A stretch of 64,000 nt of DNA from Bacilli bacterium. Lineage in GTDB: Bacteria; Bacillota_I; Bacilli_A; RF39; UBA660. The stretch lies in contig JAVBQF010000005.1 in NCBI GenBank assembly GCA_031549195.1, positions 13,462 through 77,461 of the forward strand, written 5' to 3'. Below, one piece after another: positions 4,123-60,746 of this stretch. How positions within the stretch are numbered: the first letter of the stretch is position 1; each line of letters opens with the position of its first letter. The notes below the pieces were generated by a model. It was not told the origin of the DNA, ran no database searches, and worked only from the letters and a program-made list of their open reading frames with translations. A program made the position numbers and the translations under genes.

Positions 4123-4209
4123 TGGTGCCCGAGGTCGGACTTGAACCGACATGATATTGCTATCACTGGATTTTGAGTCCAGCGCGTCTACCGATTTCAC
4201 CACTCGGGC
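4123..4209 (-). tRNA. tRNA-Leu (anticodon CAA) with long variable arm and encoded CCA
   Basis: Reverse complement reads GCCCGAGTGGTGAAATCGGTAGACGCGCTGGACTCAAAATCCAG...GTCGGTTCAAGTCCGACCTCGGGCACCA: 7-bp acceptor stem, anticodon loop CTCAAAA, long variable arm, GTTCAAGTC T-loop. Confidence 0.85.
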
Positions 4210-44919: not shown

Positions 44920-45858
44920 CTATAAATCTTCTTCTGTTTCACCAATTATATATACTGGCCTATTTTTTGTTTCAAGATAAGTTTTCGCAAGATATTGACC
45001 TAGTATTCCTGTACAGAATAATTGAATTCCTGAAACAAAGAATATAATACATACAAGTGACGGCCATCCGCTTGTTGGATCACCCATTGCAAGTGTTCTA
45101 ACAATAATAACCACTATCATAATCATAGATATTAAGAAAAATAATATTCCCATTATACTTGATATTATTAATGGTACTGTAGAAAATCCAATTATACCTT
45201 CAAGTGCATAACCAAATAATTTCCAAAATGACCACTTAGTAACACCAGCAACTCTGTCTTGGTTTTCAAATGCTATCCACTTTGTTTTAAAGCCAACAAA
45301 ACTAAATATCCCTTTAGAATAACGATTGTATTCTTTCATTGAAAGAACTGCATCTACCATTTTCCTTTTCATCAATCTAAAGTCTCTAGCACCATCAACC
45401 ATTTCAGTCTTACTCATTGCATTAATTATTTTATAAAACCATTTTGTACAAATTTTTCTAATAAATGAATAACCCTTTCTTGAAACACTTCTAGTAGCAA
45501 TACAGTCATAATCTTCTTCCTCAAGTGTTTTTAATAATTCTGGTAATAAACTTGGTGGATCTTGTAAATCTGCATCCATTACACAAACATAATCACCACT
45601 TGCCAAGCTTAATCCTGCATACATAGCTCCTTCTTTACCAAAGTTTCTTGATAATGAAGCATACCTTACTCTCTTATCACTTCTTGCCAATTCTCTCATG
45701 ATTAATAATGTGTTATCACGCGATCCATCATTTACAAAAATAAATTCGAAATTCACTTCTTTCATCTTATTTGCAATTTTACTTGCTTCATCATAAAATA
45801 ATGGTAATGACTCTTGTTCGTTATAACAAGGTACAACAACTGATATTTTCTTTTTCAT
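44920..45858 (-). CDS. Family 2 glycosyltransferase (GtrB-like, second copy)
   Basis: ISVVVPCYNEQ...VNDGSRD...MDADLQDP with C-terminal TM helices; paralogue of 10002..10952. Confidence 0.85.
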   Translation of the reverse strand: MKKKISVVVPCYNEQESLPLFYDEASKIANKMKEVNFEFIFVNDGSRDNTLLIMRELARSDKRVRYASLSRNFGKEGAMYAGLSLASGDYVCVMDADLQDPPSLLPELLKTLEEEDYDCIATRSVSRKGYSFIRKICTKWFYKIINAMSKTEMVDGARDFRLMKRKMVDAVLSMKEYNRYSKGIFSFVGFKTKWIAFENQDRVAGVTKWSFWKLFGYALEGIIGFSTVPLIISSIMGILFFLISMIMIVVIIVRTLAMGDPTSGWPSLVCIIFFVSGIQLFCTGILGQYLAKTYLETKNRPVYIIGETEEDL

Positions 45859-45868
45859 AACTATCTCC

Positions 45869-47365
45869 TTACTTCTTTACACCTTTTTCAATTGCTTCAA
45901 ATATTCCAAAATATTTGACATCTATTTTTTTATTACTTGGTATATTGTAATACTTTTTAAATATTTCTTCTTCCCTATTAGTTGTAGGATTATAATCAAA
46001 TACCAAGTGTAAAGGGTTTGCTTTTACTTCAATAACTTCATTATCTGTAACAATCTGCTCTTTAATATATTCTTGTTTGGTATAATCAATATATCTAATT
46101 ATTCCTAAACTTATTATATAATATATTGCTACAACTACAAGCAAAACCTTTAAAATATGAAAATTTAGATTCAAATTTAAATCTTTAATAGCAACGACTG
46201 AAGAAAAAATAAATACTAAAATAAATATTATAGAATATCTGTCATACCATATTGGTATAAATAGCATAACTACTGATATAGAAACAGCCATAAATAATAA
46301 AAGTAATATTAAATTTCTGACTTTTTTATCATTAATTATTATGAATATACTATAAATAAATAGTCCTAAAAATAATAACCAATAAAAGATAAAATATGAA
46401 TTATATGTATTGAATATGCCATGATAACTACTTATTACTAAGTTTAAATTAAACGGTATCAACAATGAAAAGTTACATATAATTGTAAATATTGGAATTA
46501 TATTAAACAATACTATAACTAATCTATTATATGGTTTAGATTTAAATACATCAATTACCACATAATTAATTGGTATCAACATGAGAAGCATTGTAAAAGT
46601 ATTTCTTGTAAATAGATATTTAATAAAGTTAGGTATATTTTCTATCTTTTTGTCCCATAAATTTAAACTTGAAAAGAACTCATTAGCACTAAAAATGCCT
46701 GTATTTTTAAGCATTAATATCAATGAAATGGAAGATACTATAGTTAAAATAAGATTAAAATATTTAATCTTTTTTGATTTTAAACTCATATATATAAGAT
46801 ATACAATATTTGTTAATAAAAAACCAATACCTATAACTTCATTAAGAAGAGGAATTGAAATTCCTAATAACAAAAGAACAATATTTTTCTTACTTTTTTT
46901 TATTTCCAATTTATTCATATAATAAAAATAATAAATTGATAATATACTTGGAAAAGTATTGAAAACACTGCCTTCAATCCAAGTATAATTTTGTGAAAAA
47001 GTTAGAGTATTTACAAGTAGTATTCCAAGAAATGGTAACAGATAGTAATATTTATTTTTAACAATTCCAAGCATCTCTGATACCATATATACAAAATTAC
47101 TCATAAGAAGGGCAAAAAGAACATCAAATATCATTTTATTACTGCATAAAACATTTATTAAAAAACGACCTAAAATTCTTCCTTCCCCATTTTTATATAG
47201 TTCTATAGCATTTGCAATAGAATCATTTATTCCGCCATTACCAATCAAAAAACTACCGTAATCCGCACCAGTTAAAGGTGCTAAAAAACTAAGAATGAAA
47301 AAAAAGAAAAATGTTCCAATTACTACTCTATATTTAAAATCTATTACTTCTAATCTTTCTTTCAT
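45869..47365 (-). CDS. Polytopic membrane protein, probable GT-C-type glycosyltransferase partner of GT2
   Basis: 498 aa, more than 10 TM helices, sits immediately downstream of GT2 as in the 10-13.8 kb module. Confidence 0.55.
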   Translation of the reverse strand: MKERLEVIDFKYRVVIGTFFFFFILSFLAPLTGADYGSFLIGNGGINDSIANAIELYKNGEGRILGRFLINVLCSNKMIFDVLFALLMSNFVYMVSEMLGIVKNKYYYLLPFLGILLVNTLTFSQNYTWIEGSVFNTFPSILSIYYFYYMNKLEIKKSKKNIVLLLLGISIPLLNEVIGIGFLLTNIVYLIYMSLKSKKIKYFNLILTIVSSISLILMLKNTGIFSANEFFSSLNLWDKKIENIPNFIKYLFTRNTFTMLLMLIPINYVVIDVFKSKPYNRLVIVLFNIIPIFTIICNFSLLIPFNLNLVISSYHGIFNTYNSYFIFYWLLFLGLFIYSIFIIINDKKVRNLILLLLFMAVSISVVMLFIPIWYDRYSIIFILVFIFSSVVAIKDLNLNLNFHILKVLLVVVAIYYIISLGIIRYIDYTKQEYIKEQIVTDNEVIEVKANPLHLVFDYNPTTNREEEIFKKYYNIPSNKKIDVKYFGIFEAIEKGVKK

Positions 47366-47374
47366 AAATCACCT

Positions 47375-47866
47375 TTAAATACTATCAATATAATTTGATA
47401 TTAAATTAATCATATTTTCTGTATTACTTTTATATTTTTTAGGTTTAAATGTTTTCACACGTTCTAATATGTTACCAAACTTTGTAAAATCCTTTAATTC
47501 CAATATATGACCATCATGAGCTAATTTACTTACTATTTGTATTTGATGATCATTGACATGTTCTTTATATTTTTCTAGTCTTGCTGCTGCTATAACAATC
47601 TTGTTGTGATTAAGACCAGATAGTATTGATCCAACTCCACCATGTGTAATTAATAAACTGCATCTTTCAATTATTTTTTCAAATTCATCGCTTTCAATGT
47701 AATCAAATGTCTTTATATTTTTTGATTCATACTTTGTACAGCCAACTTGAGCGATTACTTCTTCCTTAATACTACCCTTTTCTATTTCTTCATCTACTGC
47801 TTTTAATAATCTTTCAAAGCTTTTATCTTGAGTACCTAATGTTACAAATATCATTAATAAATCCAA
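47375..47866 (-). CDS. Glycosyltransferase family 28 C-terminal domain protein (Alg13/Cps14G/EpsF-like)
   Basis: IFVTLGTQDKSFERLLKAVD...SLLITHGGVGSILSG matches Alg13-like UDP-sugar-binding half-transferase. Confidence 0.7.
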   Translation of the reverse strand: MDLLMIFVTLGTQDKSFERLLKAVDEEIEKGSIKEEVIAQVGCTKYESKNIKTFDYIESDEFEKIIERCSLLITHGGVGSILSGLNHNKIVIAAARLEKYKEHVNDHQIQIVSKLAHDGHILELKDFTKFGNILERVKTFKPKKYKSNTENMINLISNYIDSI

Positions 47867-48327
47867 CCTCCATAAGTAGCTTTTGGATAAATTTTAAGCA
47901 TGCTTTCCCATTGTACAATAAACAGGTCAGCAAAATAATAAATTAATCTTCCAGTTACTGTTTTAGTATTCATATTAGCAAGTGTCTCAATATAAATAAT
48001 TTTACTTCCAAATATTTTTCCTATGCAGCACATTGGTCCTGCTGTATGAGCACCTGTAGTAATTATGAATTTAGGCCTTATTTTAAAATATAAGTATAAA
48101 CTTTTAACGCTGTTATAAAGTAATTTAAAAGGATATATTATAAAGTTAAGCTTGGTTCCATATACCAAAAAAGAAACTCTATTGGGATACTTATTTATTA
48201 AGTTCATATTAGATTTAGTCTTTTCAGTTATTATATGATAGTCATATTTATTAAACAAATCTTTTAACTGCATCATTTCAGACAAATGACCACCAGTTGA
48301 TGATATAAACAATATTTTTTTCTTCAT
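47854..48327 (-). CDS. Alg14/Cps14F-like membrane-associated half-glycosyltransferase
   Basis: KILFISSTGGHLSEMMQL...IITTGAHTAGPMCCIGKIFGSKIIYIE typical Alg14-like partner; 13-nt overlap with Alg13-like gene. Confidence 0.7.
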   Translation of the reverse strand: MKKKILFISSTGGHLSEMMQLKDLFNKYDYHIITEKTKSNMNLINKYPNRVSFLVYGTKLNFIIYPFKLLYNSVKSLYLYFKIRPKFIITTGAHTAGPMCCIGKIFGSKIIYIETLANMNTKTVTGRLIYYFADLFIVQWESMLKIYPKATYGGWIY

Positions 48328-48843: not shown

Positions 48844-50850
48844 ATGAATAAGTATTTAAAAAGATTTTTAGTACTATGTTTTGTTGCTTCCTATTTTCTA
48901 AATATGGCTATGGTTTTTGCTGTTTCCACCACAACAGGAAAAGTAAGTGCTACTGGCAATGGAGTATTGGTAAGAGCAAATGCTGGAAGTAGTTATTCTA
49001 ACTTTGGATATGTTGGATACGGACAAAGTGTTAATATTAATCTAGATAATTCAAAACAAACACTTGATAATACAACTGGTTGTCCATCTGGATATTGGTA
49101 CTATATAACATCGCCAAAGACTGGATATGTATGTACATCTTATGTTTACATCGATAAACCAGATTCAATAATTACAGGTGTTGATATGTCCTTATTAGAT
49201 GATGATGCCTTTGATGAGTATTTAAAAAAGGAAGGGTTTCCAGTTAGTTATTACGCTAAACTTAAAGAGCTACATACTAAACATCCAAACTGGATATTTA
49301 AAGGAGTAAATACTTATAGGAACTGGACACATATTTTAAATGATGAAAGTGTCCTTGGTATGAGTTTATATCAGCTTTCATCAAGCAGAAAATCAGCAGG
49401 CTATGAAGCATACTTATCAACTGCAAGTGGAGCATATAATTGGGCAACTGATAAATTTAGCCCATATGATGGGTCGACATGGATGAATGCAAATAGAGAG
49501 ACTATTGCATATCACATTGATCCAAGAAATTTCTTAACAGAAAGCTATATCTTCATGTTTGAAGATTTAGGGTATAATTCTTCTTATACAAAAGATGATG
49601 TAGAAAAAATTATAAAGTCAGATTATACAAATTATATATTAGAAGCATCTAAAGCTTCTAATATATCAGCGATGTTCTTAGCATCGAGAATTAAACAAGA
49701 AGGGGTTTTAATAACAAAAGCAACAACTGGAGAAAATTTTGTCTGTGATGGTAAAACTTATAGCGGATATTATAATTTTTATAATATTGGAGCAACCAGT
49801 GGGGCTGATCCTGTAACTAATGGTTTATGCTATGCAATGGCAAAGGGATGGAATACGCCTGAAAAAGCTATTAAAGGTGGAGCCCAATTTCTATCTGGAA
49901 GTTATATTAATCAAGGACAATATACAAACTACTTTCAAAAATGGAATGTTTCATCTAGTACTCAAAGTAATATAACTCACCAGTATATGACAAACATAGA
50001 AGCACCAAGAAGCGAATCTTCAATTATATATTCTTCATATAAAAACATTAATATATTAGATAGTTCTTTTGTATTTTATATTCCATATTTTAATAATATG
50101 CCTGATACAACTACACTTCCAACACTGGGAAATCCAAATAACTGGTTAAAAAACCTACAAGTTGATTCTATTTCAGTAAATAATTTTAAAGGAGAAACTA
50201 CCAGTTATATTGTTACAGTTCCTTACAATACTACATCAGTAAATGTTACTGCTAGTGCTGTTAATTCTAGTTCTGCAATAGAAGGTATTGGAACAGTAAA
50301 GTTAGAAAGTGAAGAAACTACAGCAACAATTAAGGTAACGGCTGGTAATAAAACTACTAAGTCTTATACAATAAAGATTAAAAAAGATGCAGTACCTATT
50401 GATGTTGTATTTCCAGCAATTAGTGAAATAATAAATAAAACAAATGTAAAAACTAAAGATTCTAATATGAGCGGTATACTAATAGGTACAACTGCTACAA
50501 AATTAATTGATAGCATAAAAGCAGCTAGTGAGTCTGCAAATGTGACTATAATGGACAAACAAAACAAGATTAAAACTGGATCAATGCTTGCAACTAGTGA
50601 TAAAGTTACAATAGTAAGTGGAACAGAAACACTTACTTATACAGTTATAATTTATGGTGATACTAATGGTGATGGTAATATAAGTGCCATTGACTTATTG
50701 CAAATACAAAAAGATATACTAGGATACACAAAACTTAGTGGTATATATAAAGATGCAGCTGATACAAACAAAGATGGGAAAATATCGGCAGTTGATTTAT
50801 TACAAGTACAAAAGAGTATCTTAGGATATGGAACCATTCCACAATCATAG
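48844..50850 (+). CDS. Secreted multi-domain cell-wall hydrolase: SH3b-like, GH73-like glucosaminidase, cadherin-like beta-sandwich, C-terminal type I dockerin
   Basis: Signal peptide; glucosaminidase-like region SAMFLASRIKQEGV...YYNFYNIGA; C-terminal dockerin duplicated Ca-binding repeats GDTNGDGNISAIDLLQIQKDILGY / DTNKDGKISAVDLLQVQKSILGY. Confidence 0.7.
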   Translation: MNKYLKRFLVLCFVASYFLNMAMVFAVSTTTGKVSATGNGVLVRANAGSSYSNFGYVGYGQSVNINLDNSKQTLDNTTGCPSGYWYYITSPKTGYVCTSYVYIDKPDSIITGVDMSLLDDDAFDEYLKKEGFPVSYYAKLKELHTKHPNWIFKGVNTYRNWTHILNDESVLGMSLYQLSSSRKSAGYEAYLSTASGAYNWATDKFSPYDGSTWMNANRETIAYHIDPRNFLTESYIFMFEDLGYNSSYTKDDVEKIIKSDYTNYILEASKASNISAMFLASRIKQEGVLITKATTGENFVCDGKTYSGYYNFYNIGATSGADPVTNGLCYAMAKGWNTPEKAIKGGAQFLSGSYINQGQYTNYFQKWNVSSSTQSNITHQYMTNIEAPRSESSIIYSSYKNINILDSSFVFYIPYFNNMPDTTTLPTLGNPNNWLKNLQVDSISVNNFKGETTSYIVTVPYNTTSVNVTASAVNSSSAIEGIGTVKLESEETTATIKVTAGNKTTKSYTIKIKKDAVPIDVVFPAISEIINKTNVKTKDSNMSGILIGTTATKLIDSIKAASESANVTIMDKQNKIKTGSMLATSDKVTIVSGTETLTYTVIIYGDTNGDGNISAIDLLQIQKDILGYTKLSGIYKDAADTNKDGKISAVDLLQVQKSILGYGTIPQS

Positions 50851-50858
50851 GAGGTAAA

Positions 50859-52313
50859 ATGAAATATATTAAATATTTATCCATAGCGTTACTAATAAAT
50901 CTTATCGGTATTTTAAATGTATCTGCAGCAACTGCTAATGTTTCAGTTTATTCAAACTTAGCTACAGTAGTTGTAGGTAACCAAGTAAATATAACATTTC
51001 AATTATCATCAACATCAGCACTTGGTTCGTGGGCATATCAAATAAGTTATGATTCATCAAAATTCAACTTTAAAAGTTGTAGCAACGGGCAGTCATTAAC
51101 TCAAGTTGGATATGTATCAAATGGAAATACTAAAACAACATCCGTGACCTGCTATTTTAATGCTAAAGCAAGTGGAACTGGTACATTTACACTTAGGAAT
51201 GCCGATATAGTTGCGTGGGATGAAAGTAAAATGGGAGTAAGTAATTCTTCAAAATCAGTAAAGGTAATTACACAAGCTGAACTAGAAGCATCTTACAGTA
51301 AAAACAACAACTTAAGTTCCCTATCAATTACTGGTAATAATATAACTCCATCATTTAATAAAGATACACTCGAATATAATTTAGAAGTTGAAAACGATAT
51401 TAGAAAAATAACTATAAACGCTACAAAAGAAGACAATAAATCCTCTATAACAGGGACTGGTGAAAAAGACCTCACAGAAGGACTGAACAAGTTTGCAATT
51501 GTAGTAACTGCGCAAAACGGTAGTAAAAAAACTTATACAGTTAATATAACCGTAAAAGAATTAACACCAATAATTGTAAAAATTGATAGCAAAGACTACA
51601 CTGTAGTTAGAAAAAAGGACTTATTAAAATCTCCAAATGCTTATTATCAAGACACAACAATTAAAATAGAAGACTTTGATATTCCAGCATTCATTAACGA
51701 GACAATTGGTTATACTCTAGTTGGACTAAAAGATAGTGATAATAATATTAATTTATTTGTCTATAATAAAGATAATAATACATATAGAGAATACAAAGAA
51801 ACGACATTTAATCAGCTTATACTTGAAATGGTAAATAATGATGAGAAAATGCCAGGCAATTATAAAAGAGTTACCATTACTATGAATGATGAAGAGATAG
51901 AAGGATATAAACTAGACATCAAGTCTAAATACTCATTAATATATGCAAGAAACATAGAAACTGGAGAATACAACATTTATATGTATGATAGTATTGAAAA
52001 TACTATCCAACGCTATAACACTGAAGAAGTTAATAAACTAAACGAAGAGCTAAATGAAACTAAAACTTTATATGAATACATCATAATGGGAATTGGTGGT
52101 TTCTTAATACTTACTTACTTGGTATTCTTAATATCACTTATATCTAAAGAGAAAAAAAGAAAAAAGAGTATACAAGAAAATAATAGACCAAGTATCGTTG
52201 AAGAAGAAAAAAAGGATAAAGTTGATATTAAAGAAGAAAATACTATTGATGATGCTTCAGAAATTTTAGAAGATGATAAGAAAAGCAACAAAAGAAAAAG
52301 TAGGAAGAAGTAA
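50859..52313 (+). CDS. Membrane-anchored surface protein with N-terminal cohesin-like domain, cadherin-like beta-sandwich domain, C-terminal TM and Lys-rich tail
   Basis: Signal peptide; ANVSVYSNLATVVVGNQVNITFQLSS...YQISYDSSKFNF...GTGTFTL fits cohesin beta-sandwich pattern; C-terminal TM IMGIGGFLILTYLVFLISLI then KEKKRKK. Confidence 0.6.
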   Translation: MKYIKYLSIALLINLIGILNVSAATANVSVYSNLATVVVGNQVNITFQLSSTSALGSWAYQISYDSSKFNFKSCSNGQSLTQVGYVSNGNTKTTSVTCYFNAKASGTGTFTLRNADIVAWDESKMGVSNSSKSVKVITQAELEASYSKNNNLSSLSITGNNITPSFNKDTLEYNLEVENDIRKITINATKEDNKSSITGTGEKDLTEGLNKFAIVVTAQNGSKKTYTVNITVKELTPIIVKIDSKDYTVVRKKDLLKSPNAYYQDTTIKIEDFDIPAFINETIGYTLVGLKDSDNNINLFVYNKDNNTYREYKETTFNQLILEMVNNDEKMPGNYKRVTITMNDEEIEGYKLDIKSKYSLIYARNIETGEYNIYMYDSIENTIQRYNTEEVNKLNEELNETKTLYEYIIMGIGGFLILTYLVFLISLISKEKKRKKSIQENNRPSIVEEEKKDKVDIKEENTIDDASEILEDDKKSNKRKSRKK

Positions 52314-52345: not shown

Positions 52346-54439
52346 ATGAAAAAGAAAACAAAAATCAAATTTAATAAGTTATTTATACTAATATGTTTAA
52401 TAGCTAGTTTATATTTTATAAGGTCTCTTCTTTTACTTGGACCAATAGAGAGGTTATTAATGTATCTTATAATTGGGATTGTATTAGTAATAGACTCTTT
52501 CTTTATATTAAAGTTATTCAAAGGTAAAAAGAAAAGCTTTATTACCTTTATTACAATATTTTTAACAATTATATATATAGTAATAGGAGCCAATGTAAGT
52601 AAAATATATTCTATTATTTCTGATATTAATAAAGAGTATATTACCTACTCTACTAGTCTTGTAACATTAAAACAAAACAGTTCCAATATAAAAGATATTA
52701 AAGATAAAACTATTGGTATTTTAAATGATACAAATTCAATCGAGGGTTATACTCTTGCACATAGTATAATAAAAGACAACAAGCTATTAGATAATAATAA
52801 TAAATTGATTGAGTATGATAGCTTCAACAGTATGATTGCAGCACTTTTAAACAAAAAAGTAGATTACGCTTTTTTACCCGCTAGCTATGTTGATATCTTT
52901 GGCTCAACTGAAGAATTTGAGTCATTAAGTAATGATACTAAGGTATTAACAACTGAAACAAAGAACGAAAAAAAAGACATTTCCAAACTAGAAGGAAGCT
53001 CCAAGGATATTACCAAACCATTTACTATGTTAATATTAGGAATAGATTCTACTACTAACGGATTAACAAATGCTGACTCTTTTAACGGAGATTCAATCAT
53101 GGTTGTTACATTCAATCCCAAAAATTTAACTGCAACTATGTTAAGCATTCCACGAGATACATATGTACCAATTGCATGCTTTCCTGGAAAATATGAAAAT
53201 AAAATTACACATGCCGCTAGTAAAGGTACACAGTGTATGATTGATACAATAGAAGACTTTATAGGAATTAAAATTGATTATTATATGAAAATTAACTTTA
53301 CTGGAGTTGTTGACTTAGTAAATTCACTTGAAGGTGTTGAAGTTCAGGTGCCCTATAGTTTCTGTGAACAAAACAGCAAAAGACAATTTGGTAATAAAAT
53401 GATTTATGTCAAAGAAGGAAGACAAACATTAAACGGAGAACAAGCTTTAGCGCTATCTCGTAATAGAAAGTCAAATTCAGAATTTTGTAGTAGTGAATGG
53501 ACGAAAGGAACAAGAAATGATTTTGTAAGAGGCGCTAATCAACAACTTGTAATACAAGGGATTATAAACAAAGCCAAGACTATTACAAATATCAATAAAA
53601 TTTATGATATCCTAGAGGTAATATCAAAAAATATGGATACGAATATGTCTACTTCTACAATGCTTTCTTTTTATAACATTGCAAAAGATATTCTAATAAG
53701 AAGTAAAAACTCTTCTGAGTTAGTTGCAATTGAAAAGTTATACGTTGCAGGATATGGGCAAACAATATATGATGAAAGAACGGGATTACAACTTTGGAAT
53801 TATGTACCAAATAAAAGAAGCGTTACTGATTTTGTAAAAGCAATGAAAGAAAATTTAGAATTGGTTGATCATACATTAATAAAAGAGTTTAGCTATACGC
53901 CTTCTGAGGAATATGTAACACCAGTAACCGGGAAAGGTCCATATCAAGTGTATACTACTTATGACTTATTACCAGATTTTACTAAAATGACAAAGGTGCA
54001 AGCTACTTCTTGGGCAAATAAATATAGTATAACTTTAAATTTTAAAGAAGTTAACAATTCAAGCTACTCCACAGGAAGCATTATAAGTCAGAATTATCCA
54101 GTTAACAAAAGATGTGACAAAATAGATAATAAAACTGTTACACTGACAATTGTTAATAATACTTCTGAAGTAACACCACCTGTTAAAACAAAGATTGATT
54201 GCACTGATCCGAATAATATTACAAACACAGCTTGTATTCTACCAGACTTTACTGGTAAAACTAAAAGTTACGTAAATACTTGGGCAGCAAAATTCTCAAA
54301 TGTTATTATTATTAACTATAAAGAAGAAGAAAATACACTAGAATCTAATACGATTACTAATCAATCGATAACTAAAGGAACAACAATAAGTGATATGGTT
54401 AGTGGCAGTATGATATTAACTTTAACAATTGCAAAGTAG
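52346..54439 (+). CDS. LytR-CpsA-Psr (LCP) family cell-wall polymer transferase with C-terminal PASTA-like repeats
   Basis: N-terminal TM; LCP core LGIDSTTNG...DSIMVVTFNP...SIPRDTYVPIA; two C-terminal repeats LLPDFTKMTKVQATSWANKYSITLNFKEV / ILPDFTGKTKSYVNTWAAKFSNVIIINYKEE. Confidence 0.85.
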   Translation: MKKKTKIKFNKLFILICLIASLYFIRSLLLLGPIERLLMYLIIGIVLVIDSFFILKLFKGKKKSFITFITIFLTIIYIVIGANVSKIYSIISDINKEYITYSTSLVTLKQNSSNIKDIKDKTIGILNDTNSIEGYTLAHSIIKDNKLLDNNNKLIEYDSFNSMIAALLNKKVDYAFLPASYVDIFGSTEEFESLSNDTKVLTTETKNEKKDISKLEGSSKDITKPFTMLILGIDSTTNGLTNADSFNGDSIMVVTFNPKNLTATMLSIPRDTYVPIACFPGKYENKITHAASKGTQCMIDTIEDFIGIKIDYYMKINFTGVVDLVNSLEGVEVQVPYSFCEQNSKRQFGNKMIYVKEGRQTLNGEQALALSRNRKSNSEFCSSEWTKGTRNDFVRGANQQLVIQGIINKAKTITNINKIYDILEVISKNMDTNMSTSTMLSFYNIAKDILIRSKNSSELVAIEKLYVAGYGQTIYDERTGLQLWNYVPNKRSVTDFVKAMKENLELVDHTLIKEFSYTPSEEYVTPVTGKGPYQVYTTYDLLPDFTKMTKVQATSWANKYSITLNFKEVNNSSYSTGSIISQNYPVNKRCDKIDNKTVTLTIVNNTSEVTPPVKTKIDCTDPNNITNTACILPDFTGKTKSYVNTWAAKFSNVIIINYKEEENTLESNTITNQSITKGTTISDMVSGSMILTLTIAK

Positions 54440-60394: not shown

Positions 60395-60746
60395 AATAAT
60401 ACTTTATAAGCCATTTTCTGTACCTATTACTAGGTGACAAACATCTATCTACCATTACTGGTCCCTACATCAGTTATGATTCCTTAGTAGGACTCCTCTA
60501 CCAAATTTGAGTTTCTCGCTCGTGGGGTTTATCGCGTTCCATTTCCACTGTTTCCAGTATCTTCGTCACTATGACACTTTTACAGTTACTCTAATCATAG
60601 CCAAAGCCTTAGATCATTTCACAGCCGTTAGATTAACTACCTAGAGTTATTTTTTTCTCTAGCACGATCACTAAAGACATTCCAGTCTTTGCGAGTATGG
60701 ACTTTCCTCTACATTATAAAAATGCAGCGTTTGTCAAAGTACTATT
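60395..60746 (-). ncRNA. rnpB: RNase P RNA, bacterial type B (rnpB)
   Basis: Minus strand contains universally conserved GAGGAAAGUCCAUACUCG (P4 5' strand), GGAACGCGAUAAACCCCACGAGCGAGAAACUCAAAUUUGGUAGAGG, GUAGAUAGAUGUUUGUCACC and ACAGAAAAUGGCUUAUAAAG (P4 3' strand), collinear with B. subtilis rnpB; GC-rich island in AT-rich genome; immediately downstream of gpsB as in Bacillus. Confidence 0.85.

Follow-up and report, generated by a model that had tools for sequence, protein, structure and literature searches.

A cohesin-dockerin gene pair that probably tethers a cell-wall hydrolase to the surface of uncultured gut Bacilli

Two adjacent genes were analyzed in a 64-kb stretch of DNA (hereafter the window) from an uncultured, low-GC gut bacterium. 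Both open reading frames were confirmed on the + strand. ORF1 (48844..50850) encodes a putative secreted, modular peptidoglycan hydrolase of 668 aa, in which a signal peptide is followed by an SH3b-like module, a GH73 domain, a cadherin-like domain, a so-called X module and a dockerin. ORF2 (50859..52313) encodes a predicted type I membrane protein of 484 aa composed of a signal peptide, a cohesin, a cadherin-like domain, a membrane-proximal domain, a transmembrane (TM) helix and a Lys-rich cytoplasmic tail. The intergenic gap is 8 nt, and at the junction (TAGGAGGTAAAATG, 50848..50861, + strand) the TAG stop codon of ORF1 overlaps the AGGAGG Shine-Dalgarno sequence of ORF2, a layout that permits translational coupling from the first gene to the second. 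No terminator-like site was found between ORF1 and ORF2, nor a terminator between ORF2 and the downstream gene of the same strand (52346..54439), which encodes a LytR-CpsA-Psr (LCP) glycopolymer ligase with two PASTA domains (Pfam LCP, 135.5 bits, plus PASTA). The LCP-PASTA gene was considered as an obligatory third component and rejected because only 20 of 69 related loci have it directly after the pair; in 34 of 84 it is no more than 5 kb away, and it is best described as a facultative neighbour.

The signal peptide of ORF1 (aa 1–26, 48844..48921, + strand, with cleavage predicted at ...MVFA/VS) was recognized by sequence reading and hydropathy, which revealed neither a lipobox nor any further hydrophobic helix; a lipoprotein anchor was rejected because the lipobox is absent. 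The SH3b-like module (aa 43–101, 48970..49146, +) corresponds to a weak match to Pfam SH3_3 (PF08239; E 1.2e-4, 22.6 bits, under the gathering score of 27), a family that appears in the precomputed Pfam annotation of most of the ORF1 orthologues listed. The catalytic core spans aa 199–413 (49438..50082, +). Residues 199–412 matched the NCBIfam model of SagB with E 2.3e-24, and the best-matching solved enzyme was SagB of Staphylococcus aureus (PDB 6u0o and 6fxp, E about 1e-20; 8.6e-21 for 6u0o), with the glucosaminidases Atl (6fxo, 5.7e-14) and AtlE (4pi7, 2.3e-12) and the GH73 structure 5wqw (1.3e-8) also matched. Glu286 (49699-49701, +) aligned with the catalytic Glu155 of SagB and is invariant in 79 of 79 orthologues, and Tyr381, located inside an HQY(M/A)T(N/D) motif, is retained in 76 of them. 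ORF1 thus displays the features of a GH73 enzyme, namely homology over the catalytic domain, the catalytic Glu and the Tyr of a YATD-type motif, which bears out the GH73-like hydrolase proposed by an earlier, sequence-only reading of this DNA. The protein is predicted to be a GH73 N-acetylglucosaminidase, and we infer that it acts on peptidoglycan. A prophage endolysin origin was dismissed because of the signal peptide, the conserved housekeeping chromosomal context and the absence of phage genes nearby.

Downstream of the catalytic core, ORF1 contains a cadherin-like beta-sandwich (aa 436–513, 50149..50382, +; Pfam PF12733, 31.5 bits, gathering score 24.2) and, immediately N-terminal to the dockerin, the X module (aa 520–598, 50401..50637, +), which has no Pfam match and occurs together with the dockerin as one travelling unit in other proteins. 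The SH3b-like and cadherin-like modules could keep ORF1 at the wall without the dockerin. The claim that the dockerin stands in place of SH3-type anchoring had therefore to be abandoned, since the same protein carries both kinds of module.

Type I-like dockerins with two symmetric F-hands permit a dual binding mode. The dockerin of ORF1 (aa 604–660, 50653..50823, +) has two such repeats and matched Pfam Dockerin_1 (PF00404) over positions 1–57 of 57, scoring 56.9 bits (gathering score 22.9, E 2.4e-15); the PDB dockerins 2ccl, 2vn5 and 1ohz were matched as well. Each of its F-hand loops (DTNGDGNISAID, residue 606; DTNKDGKISAVD, residue 640) contains the canonical D1/N3/D5/D12 residues, so that the duplicated type I dockerin described from the sequence, including its Ca-binding residues, was confirmed. 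D1 and D12 are conserved in 75–79 of 79 orthologues in both halves. Positions 10 and 11, involved in recognition, show 10 and 8 residue types, respectively, across species, and are identical between the two halves of the dockerin in 85% and 71% of cases, against 28–29% expected. This symmetry of the halves suggests that binding in two alternative orientations would be possible. A homologue search with the dockerin alone returned six fragments and was uninformative on other dockerin-bearing proteins; a search of a representative library with a dockerin profile yielded mostly multi-dockerin proteins and picked out protein P0389.

The signal peptide of ORF2 ends in ...NVSA and is followed by A. 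An AF2 model of the protein, with a mean pLDDT of 85.6, placed a nine-stranded jelly-roll beta-sandwich at its N-terminus (aa 24–140, 50928..51278, +) that superimposed on solved cohesins. Pfam Cohesin (PF00963) did not match ORF2 of the window at E<=1, a PDB search with the ORF2 sequence alone gave only spurious matches of the TM region, and a profile of the ORF2 family produced only marginal cohesin matches in the PDB (E 0.018–0.6). As these searches were spurious or marginal, assignment of the domain rests on its fold and on its orthologues: Pfam Cohesin matched 10 of 58 of the latter, with a best E of 9.7e-8, and two of them, P0011 (29.9 bits) and P0116 (28.7 bits), lie above the gathering score of 24.1. 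The cohesin and dockerin structures matched in the PDB included 1ohz, 2vn5, 3ul4 and 4dh2. The N-terminal domain is accordingly cohesin-like in predicted fold and in family, in keeping with the sequence-only reading, although the protein of the window itself misses the Pfam model. The three Pfam families named there as a check were Dockerin_1, Cohesin and Glucosaminidase; the first matched ORF1, and neither Cohesin in the window ORF2 nor Glucosaminidase (PF01832) in ORF1 did so at E<=1. The two findings that would have spoken against a cohesin-dockerin pair, loss of the Ca-binding residues of the dockerin and an N-terminal domain of ORF2 unlike a cohesin, were not encountered.

Next to the cohesin lies a cadherin-like beta-sandwich (aa 152–231, 51312..51551, +; Pfam PF12733, 42.8 bits), present in 58 of 58 orthologues, and then a membrane-proximal, all-beta ectodomain (aa 236–390, 51564..52028, +) that is conserved and confidently folded in the prediction, has no known fold and found no solved structural relative. 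Of the cadherin-like domains previously read here in the plural, one therefore stands and the other is a different domain. The TM helix was located at about aa 408–430 (52080..52148, +; hydropathy 2.39, within an AF2 helix at 388–440), and the remaining residues, aa 431–484 with the stop codon (52149..52313, +), form the Lys-rich cytoplasmic tail, recognized by its K/R content. This type I topology, with a C-terminal TM helix and a K/R-rich tail, is found in 77 of 79 orthologues, the initial 15 residues of the tail containing a median of 6 K/R, and agrees with the signal peptide, C-terminal helix and tail first proposed for ORF2.

Conservation of the pair was assessed in 86 related loci. In all of them the ORF1 orthologue directly precedes that of ORF2, the distance between the two genes ranging from −31 to +25 nt except at one locus broken by Ns. 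The flanks vary, no flanking gene being common to more than 34 of 84 loci, and the neighbours are often housekeeping wall genes encoding LCP ligase, glycosyltransferases and polysaccharide deacetylase, with RNase J/Y and RecA nearby. [quoted passage not shown] The pair occurs in more than 480 species-level genomes of a lineage of uncultured, small-genome gut Bacilli, the carriers being small-genome gut MAGs such as a closed MAG of 1.31 Mb.

The canonical dockerin-binding face of cohesins is formed by strands 8-3-6-5. Coevolution of the two proteins was analyzed in 79 related sequences, using statistics uncorrected for phylogeny. Recognition positions of the dockerin, which differ between species and match across both halves of each protein, covaried more with columns of the cohesin than with those of the other ORF2 ectodomains: the difference was 0.033, compared with 0.000 ± 0.005 in controls, and was reached by 0 of 2000 control sets. 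The cohesin domain holds 14 of the top 20 covarying ORF2 columns, and of the top 14 cohesin columns 10 map to strands 3, 5, 6 and 8 (Fisher p 0.001, with strand ranges set partly post hoc). In mirror-tree analysis, the dockerin correlated with the cohesin with a partial r of 0.38, and with the other two ORF2 domains with −0.07 and −0.08. The strongest partial r between the two proteins, 0.46, linked the X module to the membrane-proximal domain of ORF2; the value for the first cadherin-like domain and the same membrane-proximal domain was 0.28. All-against-all mutual information between the proteins (79 pairs) was noisy and its top pairs were not between dockerin and cohesin, so that only the test focused on the dockerin recognition positions was informative.

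As a hydrolase ending in a dockerin is encoded next to a membrane anchor tipped with a cohesin, the pair probably keeps the cell's own wall hydrolase surface-bound. This proposal is supported by comparative evidence, namely the constant adjacency of the genes and the covariation of dockerin and cohesin, and we consider it likely that the two genes form a dedicated module tethering an autolysin to the producing cell. The domain identities, topology, operon junction, invariant pairing and coevolution on which it is built were established by sequence analysis or structure prediction; direct binding of the ORF1 dockerin to the ORF2 cohesin is what they point to. ORF1 would be exported by Sec, losing its signal peptide, as a GH73 N-acetylglucosaminidase of the SagB/Atl kind that carries accessory modules for wall binding (SH3b-like, cadherin-like) and has a C-terminus formed by the X module and a Ca2+-binding dockerin. 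ORF2, produced from a shared transcript and probably by coupled translation, would insert as a type I membrane protein, N-terminus outside and Lys-rich tail inside, exposing a single cohesin at its membrane-distal tip on a stalk made of the cadherin-like domain and the domain of no known fold. The dockerin would then dock into the cohesin, possibly in either of two orientations, and the docked glucosaminidase would therefore not diffuse away but remain with the cell that made it, at a set distance from the membrane, to trim or separate the cell's own peptidoglycan. A role in wall turnover or daughter-cell separation may be envisaged. The sequence-only reading had likewise taken the genes for a non-cellulosomal pair that tethers a glucosaminidase to the surface, and the dockerin, the cohesin fold, the adjacency in 86 loci, the covariation and the topology all favour it.

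The strong mirror-tree signal between the X module and the membrane-proximal domain of ORF2 could indicate a second contact, compatible with cohesin-dockerin binding, through which ORF2 would act as a regulator, positioning or gating the hydrolase in response to nucleoid or divisome cues received by its cytoplasmic tail, with a logic that may be analogous to SagB-SpdC or to FtsEX-controlled hydrolases. The K/R-rich tails found throughout the family, the conserved and confidently folded membrane-proximal domain of no known fold, the occurrence of X and dockerin as one unit in other proteins, and an FtsK gamma DNA-binding domain that ends the tail of two ORF2 orthologues (63 and 74 bits, gathering score 30.6) are in line with this. 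Against it, FtsK gamma was seen in only 2 of the 120 homologues listed and in 0 of 86 loci, the tail of the window protein has no recognizable domain, and the mirror-tree correlation may reflect a shared evolutionary rate rather than contact. We regard such regulation as unlikely, and tentative to the same degree is the notion of the cohesin anchor as a transmembrane coupling device whose tail would read nucleoid or division-site position and whose stalk, including the membrane-proximal domain that coevolves with the X module, would place or switch the docked glucosaminidase accordingly. If true, it would represent a cohesin-dockerin-based, cell-cycle-linked control of autolysins in a large uncultured gut lineage, with other wall hydrolases, such as an Atl-like glucosaminidase-amidase, docked in its relatives.

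Less probable still is a scavenging device, in which the docked hydrolase would attack not the cell's own wall but wall debris or the peptidoglycan of other bacteria, in order to compete with them or to obtain nutrients. Dockerins on lysozymes and cell-wall hydrolases from rumen cellulosome producers have been read in this way (PMC6487960; PMC6403190), and the carriers found here are small-genome gut organisms. However, the pair is present in one copy and strictly conserved at all loci examined, its frequent context is one of housekeeping wall genes, the nearest relatives of known structure (SagB, Atl and AtlE) act as autolysins, and the short stalk would hold the enzyme near the producer's own membrane. 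Equally hard to credit is an absence of direct binding between ORF1 and ORF2, the ORF2 domain being a generic cohesin-like or Ig-like spacer, the dockerin binding another partner or only Ca2+, and adjacency reflecting just a shared wall function. The failure of the window ORF2 to match Pfam Cohesin would fit this, but orthologues exceed the threshold of that model, domain-specific covariation and mirror-tree analysis tie the dockerin to the cohesin, the two dockerin halves evolve in concert, and dockerin and cohesin occur one-to-one in all loci.

Cohesin-dockerin pairs are familiar chiefly from cellulosomes, the plant-fibre-degrading complexes that they hold together. The anchoring scaffoldins of cellulosomes and amylosomes (SdbA and OlpA-C of C. 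thermocellum, ScaE of R. flavefaciens and the Sca proteins of R. bromii) are cell-bound cohesin proteins that take up dockerin-bearing enzymes, as is proposed here for ORF2. They are, however, anchored by SLH modules or sortase and serve many enzymes acting on plant or starch polymers (PMC12484212), whereas here a TM helix, one cohesin and one dockerin serve a wall hydrolase. NagJ/GH84C and NanJ/GH33 of Clostridium perfringens (PDB 2w1n, 2jh2, 2vo8, 2o4e) likewise contain non-cellulosomal cohesin-dockerin modules, to which sequence identity is only 12–18%. Their cohesins reside on secreted enzymes that attack host glycans and form enzyme-enzyme complexes; by contrast, the single cohesin described here belongs to a bitopic membrane protein and would pair with a predicted peptidoglycan hydrolase.

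SagB is also a GH73 glucosaminidase whose function depends on membrane retention by a partner protein. It contains a TM helix of its own at the N-terminus and associates with SpdC, an 8-TM protein, via membrane contacts, whereas ORF1 combines a cleavable signal peptide with a dockerin. ORF1 was rejected as a SagB equivalog because it scored 86.1 bits against the NCBIfam cut-off of 425 (NF052642); it also lacks a TM helix. The pair could represent a way of bringing a hydrolase, non-covalently, to a place near the membrane like that of SagB.

Dockerin-bearing wall hydrolases were known before. In rumen cellulosome producers, dockerins are fused to lysozyme-type or cell-wall-hydrolase modules (PMC6487960; PMC6403190), and R. 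albus has a GH73 enzyme with a dockerin (PMC4081043). These 'lyticome' hydrolases are part of large multi-enzyme systems thought to be aimed at other bacteria, unlike the one-to-one, operon-encoded, lineage-wide pair with a membrane anchor described here. The same idea is met in Ruminococcus bicirculans, a non-cellulolytic gut Firmicute with a single cohesin and a single dockerin, a sole pair linked to a GH73 enzyme (Wegmann et al. 2014, as cited in PMC4611034); the comparison is with a one-sentence description, which in that text does not mention conservation, coevolution or membrane anchoring.

We propose that the cohesin-dockerin plug and socket is reused here as a minimal, one-to-one, operon-encoded membrane tether of a housekeeping wall hydrolase, which suggests how autolysins may be restrained in organisms not yet culturable. 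With recognition residues that vary between species and are mirrored in both dockerin halves, the family would offer dozens of mutually orthogonal cohesin-dockerin specificities of natural origin that could serve protein engineering, and it includes a confidently folded ectodomain without a structural relative. Both proteins are publicly annotated only as 'cadherin-like domain-containing protein', and their function is therefore invisible in databases at present. The theme of a dockerin-bearing wall hydrolase recurs with a different enzyme, which favours tethering: on contigs of another lineage, of 37% GC, a protein combining Glucosaminidase, Amidase_3 and an X-dockerin is flanked by genes for anchor-like and cohesin-like proteins.

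Two closely spaced genes on the + strand of the AT-rich window (GC about 24–33%), ORF1 (48844–50850, 668 aa) and ORF2 (50859–52313, 484 aa), were confirmed at the positions proposed in the sequence-only reading. ORF1 stops at a TAG codon that overlaps the Shine-Dalgarno sequence AGGAGG, located 5 bases upstream of the ORF2 ATG (junction TAGGAGGTAAAATG). No terminator-like site was found between ORF1, ORF2 and the downstream gene (52346–54439, + strand) encoding an LCP (LytR-CpsA-Psr) glycopolymer ligase, which has an N-terminal membrane region and two fused C-terminal PASTA domains, modules usually carried by PBPs and PknB-type kinases. The LCP gene followed the pair directly in 20 of 69 related loci only, and no gene flanking the pair in the window was common to more than 34 of 84. 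The pair itself was conserved: in every one of the 86 loci fetched, an ORF1 orthologue lay directly upstream of an ORF2 orthologue, the two being −31 to +25 nt apart except in one locus interrupted by Ns.

When one genome per GTDB species was scanned, at least 487 genomes encoded a relative of ORF2, almost all of them MAGs of uncultured 'Bacilli bacterium' from the gut of humans, rabbits, ruminants and mice, and one a closed genome of 1.31 Mb. Some MAG records carrying the Bacilli-type pair (L024, L030, L038, L039, L057 and others) bear the names Muribaculaceae, Roseburia sp., Candidatus Ruminococcus primaciens or Clostridium sp.; such labels seem to reflect mistaken binning or naming in public records, because GC was 23–35% in all fetched loci irrespective of label. 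NCBI names both proteins only as 'cadherin-like beta sandwich domain-containing protein'. Family-built HMMs detected exactly one dockerin and one cohesin per locus, and likewise in the 64-kb window.

ORF1 begins with a Sec signal peptide and contains neither a lipobox nor a second hydrophobic helix. The duplicated dockerin predicted at its C terminus was upheld by a full-length Pfam Dockerin_1 match (aa 604–660; 56.9 bits versus a gathering score of 22.9), and all canonical Ca ligands are present in both F-hand loops, DTNGDGNISAID and DTNKDGKISAVD; such a dockerin terminates every complete orthologue. Pfam also reported a cadherin-like beta-sandwich (aa 436–513) and, below threshold, SH3_3 (aa 43–101). 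Assignment to GH73 held: although the Pfam Glucosaminidase model gave no match in ORF1, aa 199–412 matched the NCBIfam SagB model (E 2.3e-24, with a score far short of the equivalog cut-off), and a PDB search retrieved Staphylococcus aureus SagB (6u0o/6fxp, E about 1e-20), the Atl glucosaminidase domain, AtlE and a Clostridium perfringens glucosaminidase. In the PDB-search alignment Glu286 was paired with Glu155, the catalytic glutamate of SagB (bioRxiv 10.1101/2020.05.21.109470). All 79 orthologues examined have Glu286, and 76 of them keep Tyr381, which lies within an HQY(M/A)T(N/D) motif. Because of the signal peptide, the SagB-type homology and the Dockerin_1 match, ORF1 is predicted to be a secreted modular GH73-type glucosaminidase with a C-terminal dockerin. 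The dockerin had been proposed to act in place of SH3-type anchoring; however, among the matches listed most ORF1 orthologues also carry PF08239 (SH3_3), and therefore it supplements wall-binding modules rather than replacing them.

ORF2 has more than 2,000 homologues, and its PDB sequence search was empty. Its sole Pfam match is a single cadherin-like domain (aa 152–231), and not several as had been read. Its N-terminal domain, read as a cohesin, missed the Pfam Cohesin model in the window protein, but 10 of 58 aligned orthologues matched it (best E 9.7e-8), and two orthologues that were rescanned, P0011 and P0116, scored above the gathering threshold. The cohesin assignment was further supported by fold: in an AlphaFold model built on the 58-orthologue alignment (mean pLDDT 85.6) this domain is nine-stranded, and Foldseek ranked C. 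perfringens cohesins first (2w1n, E 1.4e-9; 2jh2, TM 0.70). The anticipated C-terminal TM helix (about aa 408–430) occurs in 77 of 79 orthologues and is followed in ORF2 by a K/R-rich tail, so that topology is type I and the cohesin is the domain most distant from the membrane.

Dockerin positions 10 and 11, the classical recognition residues, vary among 10 and 8 residue types across species, yet the two halves carry the same residue in 85 and 71% of cases, respectively, versus 28–29% expected. Such mirroring is the pattern of concerted evolution to be expected when a dual-binding-mode dockerin is under selection from its partner. For 14 variable dockerin recognition positions, APC-corrected mutual information with ORF2 columns, uncorrected for phylogeny and controlled internally by other domains of the same proteins, was higher by 0.033 for the cohesin than for the other two ORF2 ectodomains; random variable-column sets from other ORF1 domains gave 0.000 ± 0.005, and 0 of 2000 reached the observed value. 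The cohesin contained 14 of the 20 best covarying ORF2 columns, and 10 of the 14 best cohesin columns fell on strands 3, 5, 6, 8 or the 7–8 loop (Fisher p 0.001, with ranges partly set after the list was seen). Strands 3, 5, 6 and 8 form the dockerin-binding face of solved complexes. Mirror-tree correlation of pairwise distances, with the same controls and likewise uncorrected, placed the cohesin as top partner of the dockerin (partial r 0.38, versus −0.07 and −0.08 for the other two ORF2 domains). The top inter-protein signal linked the X module preceding the dockerin (ORF1 aa 520–598) to the membrane-proximal ORF2 domain of unknown fold (aa 236–390; partial r 0.46), which suggests a second contact surface.

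The best-supported reading is that the pair forms a dedicated autolysin tether, for which we infer binding, enzymatic activity and physiological role. The non-cellulosomal tethering originally proposed is thus sustained by adjacency in every locus, by the single dockerin and cohesin in each and by domain-specific covariation. Once secreted, the glucosaminidase would use its Ca2+-dependent dockerin to attach to the one cohesin topping a membrane-anchored stalk, the latter probably produced stoichiometrically via translational coupling, and would thereby be retained on the producing cell with a defined reach from the membrane. SagB needs membrane placement for function, and the ORF1 tether may resemble this by another physical route. 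Rival readings are that the two proteins do not bind directly, against which the covariation has to be weighed, or that the enzyme is aimed at foreign peptidoglycan (the 'lyticome' idea; PMC6403190, PMC6487960).

The idea that the anchor is an active regulator reading cytoplasmic cues is kept alive by the X module signal and by a bona fide FtsK gamma (DNA-binding winged-helix) domain ending the cytoplasmic tail of two ORF2 orthologues of 45–46% identity, P0009 (aa 471–531) and P0014 (aa 478–537), with 63 and 74 bits versus a gathering score of 30.6. This domain, found neither in the window ORF2 nor in the 86 loci, hints at a link of the anchor to the chromosome or division site.

Cohesin-dockerin pairs outside cellulosomes are already established, e.g. 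in C. perfringens and Archaeoglobus, and structures from both were among the matches to the ORF2 cohesin domain. Dockerin-bearing GH73 or lysozyme modules have been listed for Ruminococcus albus and rumen metagenomes (PMC4081043; PMC6487960), and our literature search found no paper joining RF39 with dockerin. [quoted passage not shown] 2014, as cited in PMC4611034). The principle is thus known; new here are the TM-anchored architecture with its one-to-one operonic pairing, the conservation of this architecture across the lineage and the evidence for coevolution.

The X module and dockerin (ORF1 aa 520–660; window 50401–50637 with 50653–50823) recur jointly in unrelated proteins (P0389, P0380, P0379, P0374, P0290). 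A homologue search with the dockerin by itself yielded fragments only. P0389, from a dockerin-profile search over 1.8 billion representative proteins, combines Glucosaminidase (PF01832), Amidase_3, X module and dockerin, and is encoded on contigs of 37% GC (L089, 1–2756; L090, 1–2602). The sequence upstream encodes the C-terminal portion of an ORF2-like anchor, comprising the membrane-proximal domain (E 1.2e-15), a TM helix and a KR tail; the gene downstream begins with a signal peptide followed by a cohesin-like domain (E 1.3e-9). Here, in another lineage, the docking theme would recur with an Atl-like bifunctional hydrolase, and hydrolase and anchor genes may alternate. Since P0389 is flanked by anchor-like and cohesin-like genes, wall-hydrolase docking onto such anchors appears to extend past one enzyme and one clade.

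Divergently transcribed from the pair, a glycopolymer cluster (44920–48327, − strand) encodes a GT2 glycosyltransferase, a polytopic membrane protein of 498 aa and, as a split Alg13/Alg14-like pair, Glyco_tran_28_C-like and Alg14-like proteins, as identified by comparison with annotated loci L004 and L005; it was common to only 6–9 of 84 loci. The window also contains one tRNA (4126–4209, − strand) and a bacterial class B RNase P RNA (60402–60742, − strand; 267 bits), which fits a Firmicutes/Mollicutes-type organism.
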